A stretch of DNA of 64,000 bases from Phenylobacterium sp. (GTDB lineage: Bacteria; Pseudomonadota; Alphaproteobacteria; Caulobacterales; Caulobacteraceae): positions 3,466 through 67,465 of the forward strand of contig NZ_JAUXVZ010000039.1 of assembly GCF_030680185.1 (NCBI RefSeq), in the 5' to 3' direction. The translations under genes were made by a program, and so were the position numbers. Shown here one piece after another: positions 42,597 through 53,688 of this stretch (its first letter is position 1; the number at the start of each line of letters is the position of its first letter). Under the pieces are notes generated by a model. That model saw only the letters and a program-made list of their open reading frames with translations. It had not been told where the DNA came from and searched no databases.

Positions 42597-43939
42597 CGGC
42601 CGATCCTCCGGGCCAGGGCCTGGGCGAAGGCGTCGATATCCTCGTCCAGGGTCATTTCAGTGGCGGCGCACAGCAGGACGTCGTCCAGGCCCGCATGAGG
42701 GTCCAGGCGCGAGAAGGGCACGCCGGCGACGACACCGTCGTCCAGCAGGCCCTCGACCATGGCCGCAGCCTCGCCGGGCAGGCGCACGGCGATCTCGTTG
42801 AAGAACCGCTTGGTCAGCACCTCGACCCCCTCGATGGCGCCGAGCGCCTGGGCCAAGCGACGGGCCTTGGCGTGGTTGATGGCCGCGAGCTGACGCAGGC
42901 CCACCTCGCCCAGCAGGGTCAGATGGATGGTGAAGGCCAGCGCGCAGAGCCCCGAATTGGTGCAGATGTTCGAGGTCGCCTTTTCCCGCCGGATATGTTG
43001 CTCGCGGGTGGAGAGCGTCAGGACGAAGCCCCGGCGACCCTCGGCGTCGACGGTCTCGCCGCACAGGCGGCCAGGCATCTGCCGGACCAGTTTTTCGCGG
43101 CAGGCGAACAGGCCGATATAGGGGCCGCCGAAATTCAGGGCGTTGCCGATCGACTGGCCCTCGGCCACCGCGATGTCGGCGCCCATCTCGCCGGGCGACT
43201 TGAGCAGGCCATAGGACACCGCCTCGGTGGTCACCACGATCAGCAGCGCGCCAGCCTTGTGGGCGGCCTCGGCGATGGCGGTGACGTCGGTGGCGACGCC
43301 AAAGACATTGGGGGTCTGGACCACGACGCAGGCGGTTTCGGCGTCGATGGCGTCCACCACCGCGGCCTCGGCGTCGATGGCGACGGTCTGGCGGACGATG
43401 TCCATGCCCTCGGCATGGGCGATGGTCTGGGTGGTGGCGGCATAGTGGGGATGCAGGCCGCCGGACAGGATGGCCTTCTTCCGACGGGTCACGCGCCGGG
43501 CCATCATCACCGCCTCGGCGCAGGCGGTGGAGCCGTCGTACATGGACGCATTGGCCACATCGAGGCCGGTGAGCGCGGCCACCTGGGTCTGGAACTCGAA
43601 CAGCACCTGCAAGGTGCCCTGGGCGATCTCGGGCTGGTAGGGGGTGTAGCTGGTCAGGAATTCCGAGCGCTGGATGATGTGGTCCACCGTCGCCGGCACA
43701 TGGTGGCGATAGGCGCCCGCGCCGCAGAAGAACGGCCCGGCCCCGGCCGAGCGGTTCAGAGCCGCCAGCCCTACAAGCTCACGCTCCACCTCCAGCTCGC
43801 CCGCATGGTCGGGCAGATCGAAGGTTTCGGACTTGCGCGCAGCCGCCGGCACATCGGCGAACAGGTCATCAATAGTCGCAGCGCCGATCACGCCCAGCAT
43901 CTGGGCGCGGTCGTCGGGCGTGAGCGGCAGGTAACGCAT
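42593..43939 (-). CDS. gcvPA: Glycine dehydrogenase subunit 1
   Basis: [35 protein letters not shown]. Confidence 0.96.
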
Positions 43940-45499: not shown

Positions 45500-45700
45500 C
45501 CCGCTGTCCCTGAGCCTGAGAGATTTAGAGGCGGACGATCATGTCCGCGCCCATTGCTCCTTCGGCGAGCCCTACCTTTCGGCGGGCTGCTTTCCAGCGT
45601 TCATCAGCTCTTCGCGGTCCGTTTGCCTGAGCGTTTCCGGGGCGGTTGCGCCTTCGGCGCCGGGCCAGACGAACCCGGTCTCTCCCGCGAGGAGTCCTCG
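45500..45700 (-). ncRNA. Tandem glycine riboswitch
   Basis: Minus strand: GCGGGAGAGA..CGCCGAAGGCGCAA..AAACGCTCAGG then CTGGAAAG..CGCCGAAGGAGCAA..AATCTCTCAGG..GACAG; directly upstream of gcvT. Confidence 0.93.
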
Positions 45701-52130: not shown

Positions 52131-53069
52131 CTAGCCCAGAAGCAACAGACCGACATAGGCCACATAGGCCAGCAGGAAGCCTGCGCCCTCCAGGCGCTTC
52201 AGCCCGCCGCCCGTCCGCAGCAGCAGGGCCAGGAGGCCGGTGGCCGCCAGCAGCACCCAGATGTCCAGGTTGGCGATTTCCGGCGGAATGCGGATCGGCG
52301 ACACCGCCGCCGTGATCCCGAGGATTCCGAAGACGTTGTAGATGTTGGAGCCGATGACGTTGCCCAGCGCCACGTCGGCATGGCGGCGCAGGGCGGCCAC
52401 CACGCAGGCCACCAGCTCCGGCAGGGACGTGCCCACCGCCACGATGGTCAGGCCGATCACCCGCTGCGGCATGCCCAGGCCCTCGGCCAGCTCGATGGCC
52501 CCGCCGACCAGCAGGCGCGCGCCGACCACGGTCAGGACGATGCCGCCAGCGGTCATCAGGACGAAACGGCCCAGGCGCTTCCAGTCCCGCTCCACGGGCG
52601 GCCGGGTGACCCCGCCGGCTTCGTGATTGCGCTCACGAAGATAGGTCACCACCAGATAGATCCCGAGCAGGACGAGGAGGAACAGGCCGAACCAGCGGTC
52701 GATAAAGCCCGCCACCACCGCCAGCAGGCAGATCACCGACGAGGCGCCCAGCGCGATCATGTCCCGCCCGATCGCCTGGGGACGGACATAGATCGGCGAG
52801 ATCGCCGCGGTGACGCCCAGGATCAGCAAGATGTTGGCGATGTTGGAGCCGACCACATTGCCCACGGCGATATCGGGGGCGTTGCGCAGGGCGGCGATCA
52901 GGCTGGTGACGAGTTCCGGCGTCGAGGTGCCGAAGCCCACCAGGACGAGACCGCTGAGCAGGGGCGAGACCCCCAGCACCCGGGCCGAACCCACCGCCCC
53001 ACGGACCAGGATTTCGCCCCCGAACGCCAGGAAGACCAGGCCGCCGATGATCAGCAGGGAGATGATCAC
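52131..53069 (-). CDS. Ca2+/Na+ antiporter (CaCA/YrbG family)
   Basis: Two alpha repeats GFGTSTPEL and AVGTSLPEL, GNVVGSNIAN and GNVIGSNIYN; GTG start at 53069. Confidence 0.92.
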   Translation of the reverse strand: MIISLLIIGGLVFLAFGGEILVRGAVGSARVLGVSPLLSGLVLVGFGTSTPELVTSLIAALRNAPDIAVGNVVGSNIANILLILGVTAAISPIYVRPQAIGRDMIALGASSVICLLAVVAGFIDRWFGLFLLVLLGIYLVVTYLRERNHEAGGVTRPPVERDWKRLGRFVLMTAGGIVLTVVGARLLVGGAIELAEGLGMPQRVIGLTIVAVGTSLPELVACVVAALRRHADVALGNVIGSNIYNVFGILGITAAVSPIRIPPEIANLDIWVLLAATGLLALLLRTGGGLKRLEGAGFLLAYVAYVGLLLLG

Positions 53070-53113
53070 CTGAGCGCCGCCCCTGGGGCCGGCAAGAAGT
53101 CGCAGTCGGGCAA
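53066..53113 (-). CDS. Putative uORF (M)PDCDFLPAPGAALR coupled to the antiporter
   Basis: AAAGGAG SD 6 nt before TTG; its TGA overlaps the antiporter GTG (GTGA). Confidence 0.4.
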   Translation of the reverse strand: MPDCDFLPAPGAALR

Positions 53114-53230
53114 TGGGCGCTCCTTTGGGTCGCGGAAAAGAGCGAACGGATGGGGCAGATGTTCCGCCCGCCGGCCTCAGGCGCCCAAAATGGGGCCGCG
53201 GCAAATTGGCGATGTCCGCCCGAGTGTCAA
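53067..53230 (-). promoter_or_regulatory. Promoter and structured 5' leader (riboswitch candidate)
   Basis: TTGACA (53230-53225) - 16 nt - CAATTT; several mutually exclusive stems including an SD-sequestering hairpin. Confidence 0.5.
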
Positions 53231-53250
53231 GACGTCCCTTGGGGCGAGCC

Positions 53251-53688
53251 TCAGGGGGAGACTGGCGGCGCAAGCTCCAGGGCCTGCCGCCGCGCCTCAG
53301 CTTCGCGGGGGTCGAGCCTGTGGGCGACGCGGCTCATTCGGCTGGCGAGGCTCTGGCCGCGGCGAGCCGTCGCCGCCTCGGCGATCCGGCTGGCCCGCGT
53401 ACATTGGGGATACTCGGTCCGGCGCGCGGCGAAACCGGAATTGAAGGCCTCCTTCATCCGCCGGTCGAGGGCCGCATCGGGCTGTTCGGTGTCGGTCACC
53501 CCGATCATCCGGTCGCGCCAGTATTGGTCATAGGCGCCTTCGCAGACCTGACGCAGGGCGTGGCTCTCGCCGAGGACATAGGCGATGTCCACCAGGGTCT
53601 GGCGTTGGGCGGGCGTTCGCTCCTGCGCCACGGCGGGGTTCGCCAGGGCCAGGAGTCCGCCGAGGATCAGAAGCGCAGCTGCACGCAT
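53251..53688 (-). CDS. TIGR02301-like secreted protein
   Basis: Signal peptide; YVLGESHALRQVC, QYWRDRM, AFNSGF. Confidence 0.8.
   Translation of the reverse strand: MRAAALLILGGLLALANPAVAQERTPAQRQTLVDIAYVLGESHALRQVCEGAYDQYWRDRMIGVTDTEQPDAALDRRMKEAFNSGFAARRTEYPQCTRASRIAEAATARRGQSLASRMSRVAHRLDPREAEARRQALELAPPVSP

Follow-up and report, generated by a model that had tools for sequence, protein, structure and literature searches.

Leaders of cation-related genes have been described that act either through short upstream open reading frames (uORFs) or through structured RNAs. In Escherichia coli and Salmonella, the uORF YoaL overlaps mgpA/yoaE, and replacing the YoaL start lowers MgpA translation (PMC12421838). 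The Mg2+-sensing mgtL leader of MgtA encodes a Pro-rich peptide and depends on intrinsic ribosome destabilisation (bioRxiv 10.1101/2021.02.02.429294). Among the structured RNAs, terC RNA (RF03067) is a candidate riboswitch of the orphan kind, and its published gene associations are with TerC and COG3809 (Weinberg et al. 2017, PMC5737381). No inducing cation or ligand had been found when it was described in 2017 (PMC5737381), and no later report of a ligand was found in the literature after that year. The CaCA-family exporter BP3410 of Bordetella pertussis has a yybP-ykoY Mn2+ riboswitch upstream, and a CaCA homolog under this type of riboswitch has been proven to export Mn2+ (PMC8546581). Since BP3410 stands under yybP-ykoY, CaCA genes belong to metal-riboswitch regulons, and because a CaCA homolog exports Mn2+, the annotation 'Ca2+/Na+ antiporter' should not be taken as a statement of substrate (PMC8546581).

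The window considered here, that is, the whole stretch of 64,000 nucleotides that was analysed, comes from Phenylobacterium sp. (contig NZ_JAUXVZ010000039.1). The region under study is best explained as the promoter and 5' untranslated region that serve a CaCA cation-antiporter gene, and the genome is Phenylobacterium-like. All of the leader elements lie in the 180-nt gap between an upstream DUF2385 gene and the antiporter GTG, and they are listed here with the flanking genes and the basis for each call.

52131-53069, minus strand: CaCA (YrbG-type) cation antiporter gene, GTG start, 312 aa (PF01699 1.4e-59; TIGR00367 8.9e-65).
53066-53113, minus strand: uORF of TTG, 14 codons and TGA, peptide MPDCDFLPAPGAALR (kept in 8/8 leaders).
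53111-53165, minus strand: conserved block of ~55 nt ending at the Shine-Dalgarno sequence (SD) and TTG (37/58 alignment columns invariant).
53166-53196, minus strand: variable 5' part of the leader, with CGCCUGAG, GGCCGGC and part of GGGCGG (10/37 columns invariant).
53203-53230, minus strand: putative promoter, -35 TTGACA at 53230-53225, 16-nt spacer, -10-like CAATTT at 53208-53203 (conservation).
53231-53248, minus strand: conserved box CTCGCCCCAAGGGACGTC adjoining the -35 hexamer, with a CCC-N2-GGG palindrome (leader alignment).
53251-53253, minus strand: stop codon TGA of the upstream TIGR02301/DUF2385 gene (ORF list; PF09539 1.4e-24, TIGR02301 1.8e-32).

The antiporter GTG occupies 53069-53067 on the minus strand. 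This start was placed at V69 of the long open reading frame because the TIGR00367 profile alignment begins at residue 73, and 312-aa gene calls for close relatives in public records agree with it. The GTG is kept in all eight leaders of the window's clade. A sister clade has ATG at the same position, antiporters that are ~72% identical to that of the window, and identical synteny, comprising DUF2385, leader, antiporter and a convergent rnhA. The antiporter is patchy in the genus: only 6 of 24 sampled same-genus genomes (G001-G024) have a CaCA match, and this particular ortholog is carried by two of them (G002 and G010, 72-74% identity). Loci that have it show good conservation of the neighbouring DUF2385 and rnhA genes.

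Genome and metagenome scans provided seven further leaders of the window clade (group-1), whose antiporters are 93-95% identical. Together with the window these make eight leaders, six of them distinct, and the ~6 independent sequences give low power for covariation. An index of 5.8 billion proteins supplied two extra group-1 contigs, both identical to leaders already in the set. No further copy of the window-type leader was found by model R1 in 301 family genomes, where the sole match was the window's own; the leader type is thus associated with one gene in one narrow clade.

The first-pass annotation had proposed the promoter TTGACA-16-CAATTT, and this call is borne out by comparison. The element lies at 53230-53203, and TTGACA-N16-C(A/G)A(T/C)(T/C)T occurs in 21/21 syntenic loci of both clades, with TTGACA invariant and the spacer fixed at 16 nt. 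A simple consensus scan of the leader reported neither promoter nor terminator, and the call therefore rests on conservation across the 21 loci instead. The Caulobacter housekeeping consensus is TTGACGS-N10-14-GCTANAWC, which the leader promoter fits. Transcription would start near 53196, and the promoter, ~160 nt upstream, would then give a leader of ~127 nt, in keeping with the long leader that had been claimed.

The box directly 5' of the -35 hexamer may be the site of a regulator. A related box, CGCCCC(A/T)GG(G/C)GCGACC, is found in the clade with terC RNA, and the CCC-N2-GGG palindrome is recognisable there too. The box, of ~17 nt (CTCGCCC(T/C)A(G/A)GGGACG(T/C)C), is partly tandem-duplicated 5' of the -35 hexamer, at 53231-53262 on the minus strand of the window and at L030:1330-1365 in a relative. 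CTCGCCCCAAGGGACGTC is the second copy of this partial duplication, which in L030 is exact over 17-18 nt. In the window, the TGA of the upstream gene sits in the first, diverged copy; in relatives, a TAG lies inside the box.

The leader had also been interpreted as an ion-responsive translational switch, either a variant of nhaA-II or a new class. A cmscan search with Rfam 15 (4227 families, E <= 10) returned no match to the leader, the only match being a chance snoRNA inside the coding region. The families for which a check had been proposed, nhaA-I (Li+), DUF1646 (Na+), yybP-ykoY (Mn2+) and M-box (Mg2+), were thus negative at E <= 10, as were NiCo and terC, and no separate Rfam entry was seen for nhaA-II. 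For terC, positions 52900-53450 of the window were scanned (the Rfam gathering threshold of RF03067 is 39.9 bits), and no terC RNA was detected at E <= 1 in the leaders of close relatives, which matched no other Rfam family either. A clade-specific terC CM (R2), run with filters off, found nothing in any group-1 leader; its control, L036, scored 73 bits. The terC boxes CCGGGCCCCUCUG and GAUGUCGG, which flank a variable hairpin and are invariant in 27 genus or family examples, are both absent from the window leader. Identification of the leader as terC RNA was rejected, there being no Rfam match, no R2 match and no such boxes. By these criteria of sequence, the leader belongs neither to terC RNA nor to any Rfam ion riboswitch.

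The structure proposed for the leader fares no better than chance. The 211-nt leader has a minimum free energy of -90.7 kcal/mol, compared with -86.9 +/- 4.3 kcal/mol in dinucleotide shuffles (z = -0.87), and its fold is therefore not better than chance. The hairpin said to sequester the SD, CGCUCUUU/AAAGGAGCG (53144-53137 with 53126-53118), does exist in the sequence, with eight pairs including one G-U, but as a fold it has a probability of just 0.07-0.08 in the window ensemble and 0-0.37 across the eight leaders. In these ensemble calculations, the pairing partners of the SD differ from species to species, and its degree of pairing does not exceed that of flank-shuffled controls. The upstream hairpin GGGCGG/CUGCCC (53169-53153; six pairs including one G-U), the long-range pairing of CGCCUGAG (53183-53176) with CUCAGGUG at the antiporter start (8/8 complementary) and the pairing of GGCCGGC with GCCGGCC (53093-53087) are likewise present as complementary sequences, but they are broken in relatives, with 46-62% of cells paired. 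The alternative pairing of GCGGAA with UUCCGC (53137-53132) is possible as described (6/6).

Conservation gives the same picture. Aligning the orthologous leaders and looking for covariation had been suggested as a check; on the eight-leader alignment, 64.5% of cells are paired in the proposed structure while shuffles average 64.4%, and RNAalifold detects no covariation among the window-clade leaders (covariation term +1.05). The invariant fraction of the 5' third of the leader lies below the 42% found at 4-fold codon sites of the antiporter gene. The alignment thus places no conserved aptamer where the first-pass annotation drew its helices. With this fold, these broken helices and no covariation, the claim of an ion-responsive switch, and with it a riboswitch reading of the window leader, is unsupported; a new riboswitch here is rated as very unlikely.

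The part of the leader that is conserved is the block of ~55 nt. From its 5' end, this block comprises GGAACA (53165-53160), a variable stretch, CGCUC (53144-53140), UU-CGCGAC, the SD AGGAG (53124-53120), a 6-nt spacer and the TTG. The stretch between GGAACA and CGCUC varies in sequence, while its length is fixed at 15 nt (16 nt when counted from GGAAC). The best 30-column window within the block has 23 invariant columns, with P of ~1e-4, or 0.014 when corrected for the number of windows.

Such a block might represent a small lineage-specific sensor, a new riboswitch or a thermometer-like element that replaced the terC aptamer and masks or unmasks the SD of the uORF in response to a cation. 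Conservation in the block exceeds that of neutral sites, and its CGCUC/GAGCG core, the only part of any helix that never varies, is invariant in 8/8 leaders. Furthermore, the seven relatives can lock the SD into a 9-bp helix, GGSCCUUCC/GGAG(C)GGCYC (88.9% of cells paired), GGAA can compete for the same UUCC of this anti-SD helix, and orthologs of the antiporter stand under a candidate cation riboswitch, terC RNA. Against this, the covariation is not significant, with 103 of 500 shuffles reaching the observed values and the RNAalifold term at +1.05, and the window itself breaks the helix, retaining 6 of its 9 pairs. The pairing of the SD is no stronger than with shuffled flanks, the element stands before one gene in one clade, with nothing else found by R1, and Rfam offers no match. 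A sensor of this kind is therefore rated as very unlikely, and the alternative anti-SD helix was set aside because its pairing in relatives did not reach significance and the window disrupts it.

The two boxes at the 5' end of the block also suggest a different reading, in which GGAAC(A)-N16-CGCTC is a second promoter of the ECF-sigma type inside the leader. The main transcription start would then lie near 53135-53130, followed by a short leader with the SD and uORF. GGAAC is the -35 element of EcfG-type promoters. Both boxes are invariant (GGAAC-N16-CGCT in 8/8), the 16 nt between them change in sequence and never in length, the sequence 5' of GGAAC changes at least as fast as neutral sites do, and the genome's own EcfG-like sigma gene is preceded by GGAAC-N16-CGTT. 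The leader's -10 element, however, is CGCT in 8/8, deviating from that CGTT, and GGAAC-N16-CGCT is not enriched in the genome (29 matches, against 15-44 at other spacings). Nor do the nine genome matches to GGAACN16CGCTC show a regulon, and the motif is found upstream of none of 12 other sigma-70-family region-2 genes. An internal promoter is accordingly considered distinctly unlikely. The GGAAC-N16-CGTT of the window's genome (G000:C38), a canonical EcfG-type promoter, lies ~81 nt upstream of the ECF sigma gene at 43545-43736, and is presumably the autopromoter of a general-stress-response sigma factor.

The 3' end of the block leads into the uORF. The first-pass annotation had described a 15-aa uORF with a TTG start behind a strong SD and a TGA overlapping the antiporter GTG, and this element is present in all eight leaders. 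The SD, AAAGGAG at 53126-53120 on the minus strand, falls within a segment of AGGAGCG, 6-nt spacer and TTG, in which SD and TTG are invariant in 8/8. The TTG occupies 53113-53111 (-44), and the TGA, at 53068-53066, overlaps the GTG as GTGA in 8/8. The uORF frame contains no stop in any of the eight leaders and suffers no indels; the other two frames are stopped in 7/8 and 3/8. Upstream of the antiporter GTG itself, only weak G-rich runs are seen and no good SD.

It is the frame that is maintained, whereas the peptide drifts. Its variable columns are distributed 11/8/7 over the codon positions, with no third-position bias. The likeness to a Pro-rich leader of the mgtL kind that had been proposed is not sustained, as the Pro codons are not kept: P2 is S in 3/8 leaders, P6 is F or L in 3/8, and the window's P8 and P10 show no conservation. 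The same is true of acidic and Pro residues taken together, with 1-4 of the five residues 2-6 being D, E or P across the leaders. Alternative in-frame starts, namely ATT at -45 (53114-53112) and TTG/CTG at -36, are not conserved either. The ATT start that had been put forward does exist in the sequence, but three relatives have an in-frame stop at -39.

This drift is one of several observations that would be expected of a plain, unregulated 5' untranslated region in which the uORF arose by chance or plays no part and ribosomes start the antiporter directly at its GTG. The fold does not exceed chance expectation, a GC content of 70% makes open frames frequent, and many Caulobacterales genes initiate without an SD, so that the GTG may need no coupling. 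Yet the SD and TTG are invariant, at optimal spacing, in 8/8 leaders while the neighbouring sequence varies, the uORF frame is the only one to stay open, and in the sister clade a uORF that looks independent overlaps the antiporter start with its stop in the same way. Overall, a plain leader has a small chance of being the right description.

The reading preferred with moderate confidence is that the leader is a uORF-coupled translation platform without an aptamer. Under this reading, transcription would start from the conserved sigma-70-type promoter TTGACA-N16-CAATTT and yield a leader of ~127 nt with no conserved aptamer. The SD AGGAG, 6 nt 5' of the TTG, would load ribosomes that translate the 15-codon uORF and stop at the UGA overlapping the antiporter GUG (GUGA). 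Since a good SD is missing in front of the antiporter start, this gene would be translated mainly by termination-reinitiation coupling at this GUG, and the act and position of uORF translation, and not the peptide sequence, would matter. The transcription start, translation of the uORF and dependence of the antiporter on it are each inferred from sequence.

Several points weigh against coupling. A 15-codon open frame has a ~75% probability of arising by chance at 70% GC, an estimate that is based on base composition and applies to one sequence. Given the conserved second codon, ATC, the TGA of GTGA arises of necessity, and the substitutions (11/8/7) carry no signature of coding for a peptide. 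Lastly, the uORF model leaves the conserved half GGAACA...CGCUC...CGCGAC unexplained.

Coupling of this type would make the leader work most like the published leader uORFs that overlap cation-transporter genes. As in the window, YoaL is a short SD-led open reading frame over the start of a cation-transport gene (PMC12421838). The two differ in that they have no sequence relation, that MgpA (YoaE) is a TerC-CorC transporter and the window gene a CaCA antiporter, and that coupling in the window is deduced from sequence. The likeness to mgtL extends to a short leader peptide before a cation transporter and to some D, E or P among residues 2-6 in the window clade. However, these residues are not conserved in the window clade, which also has no conserved alternative RNA structures, and mgtL acts by transcription attenuation, while the window leader is proposed to couple by stop/start overlap.

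The sister clade provides the most direct comparison. Its antiporter leaders carry terC RNA (RF03067, 59-60 bits) at the same locus and behind the same promoter, with the aptamer starting 8-9 nt after the -10 element. The aptamer thus holds the same position as the window leader with respect to promoter, flanking genes and orthologous antiporter. terC RNA is associated with cation-related membrane proteins, and the window gene is the positional ortholog of an antiporter with this RNA in its leader, a relation that gives context and not membership. The cation-RNA context that had been claimed for the gene is therefore real, in the sense that its positional orthologs carry terC RNA. Of the two terC RNAs in the window's own genome, one precedes a TerC gene and the other a COG3809 zinc-ribbon gene, and neither stands at the antiporter; these genes match the published associations (PMC5737381).

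Directly 3' of the sister-clade aptamer, a conserved extension (CAUCGAGGGUGCUCGAUG) holds an SD, GAGGG, followed 6 nt later by an AUG. The uORF that begins here has 40-42 codons and is open in 11/11 leaders, the other frames being stopped in 8/11 and 6/11. Its length differences are multiples of 3, and its stop overlaps the antiporter start as ATGA. Since the uORFs of both clades overlap the antiporter start, both place that start under the stop of an SD-led uORF, and an aptamer over the initiation region of the uORF is confined to the sister clade. The window leader is consequently best seen as a putative aptamer-less version of a uORF-coupled expression platform, and the sister-clade arrangement suggests that terC RNA acts on uORF initiation.

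Common descent of the two leader types is not apparent. No significant nucleotide similarity was found between terC-type and group-1 leaders, local alignments mostly giving z < 2 against shuffles, and a derivation of the group-1 leader from a terC-type leader was rejected because these alignments do not rise above shuffles. A resemblance of the window uORF to one sister-clade uORF, LPDC(A/D)F, was treated as coincidence. The sister-clade peptide has the form M[TP]GLGP...GD[IF]RSR, and CAUCGAGGGUGCUCGAUG forms a hairpin that encloses the SD and AUG of the uORF (for example L036:1311-1503; leaders L031-L039 and L098-L103).

Taken alone, the window leader would be an ordinary leader uORF coupled to a transporter gene, and its value is comparative. 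Sister clades with and without terC RNA, at the same locus and promoter, form a natural pair for testing the signal and action of this RNA. The terC regulon here also includes a CaCA antiporter, and as a CaCA homolog exports Mn2+ under another metal riboswitch, yybP-ykoY, which has no match in the window leader, the plausible terC signals are narrowed to divalent cations (PMC8546581). The link to terC RNA is indicative of divalent-cation stress. In sister-clade leaders the aptamer lies directly over the SD and AUG of a uORF whose stop is coupled to the antiporter start, an arrangement from which a mechanism for the expression platform can be proposed and tested.

A more speculative idea is that the window clade replaced the terC aptamer by a sensor within the uORF platform. 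This might operate through competition among GGAACA, CCUUCC and the SD, responding to a cation or temperature, or through an acidic and Pro-containing uORF start (MPDCD-) that destabilises ribosomes. Were the latter variant true, low divalent cations would leave fewer ribosomes at the UGA/GUG overlap, and synthesis of the exporter would be tuned to cation load without an aptamer. This idea is a long shot.

Elsewhere in the window, a glycine riboswitch aptamer (RF00504) lies at 45605-45697 on the minus strand (70.5 bits, E = 1.1e-12). It is the sole Rfam match at gathering level in the whole window and is unrelated to the antiporter leader.

At many terC RNAs of the genus (L073, L074, L080 and L076), CAUCGGGUGCGCUCGAUGCC comes next, and an AUG lies 19 nt 3' of GAUGUCGG. 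The open reading frames that begin at this AUG are Pro/Gly-rich (MPGPGPSLPP...). In L080, a frame of 26 codons ends in a TGA that overlaps the ATG of a TerB-like gene, and in L073 the open reading frame and the gene share one frame. Ahead of the main SD, a C-run, CUCCCCCC, is a recurrent feature at terC RNAs of the genus. The genes that follow these RNAs include TerC, TerB-like, COG3809 and CaCA antiporter genes, together with small proteins that resemble DUF465 and BI-1/YccA and were named by eye only. One replicon (G018:C2:74804-110906) has eight terC matches within ~36 kb, six of them over the Rfam cut-off, and one RNA of this cluster precedes a TerC gene with a CaCA antiporter gene behind it (L009).
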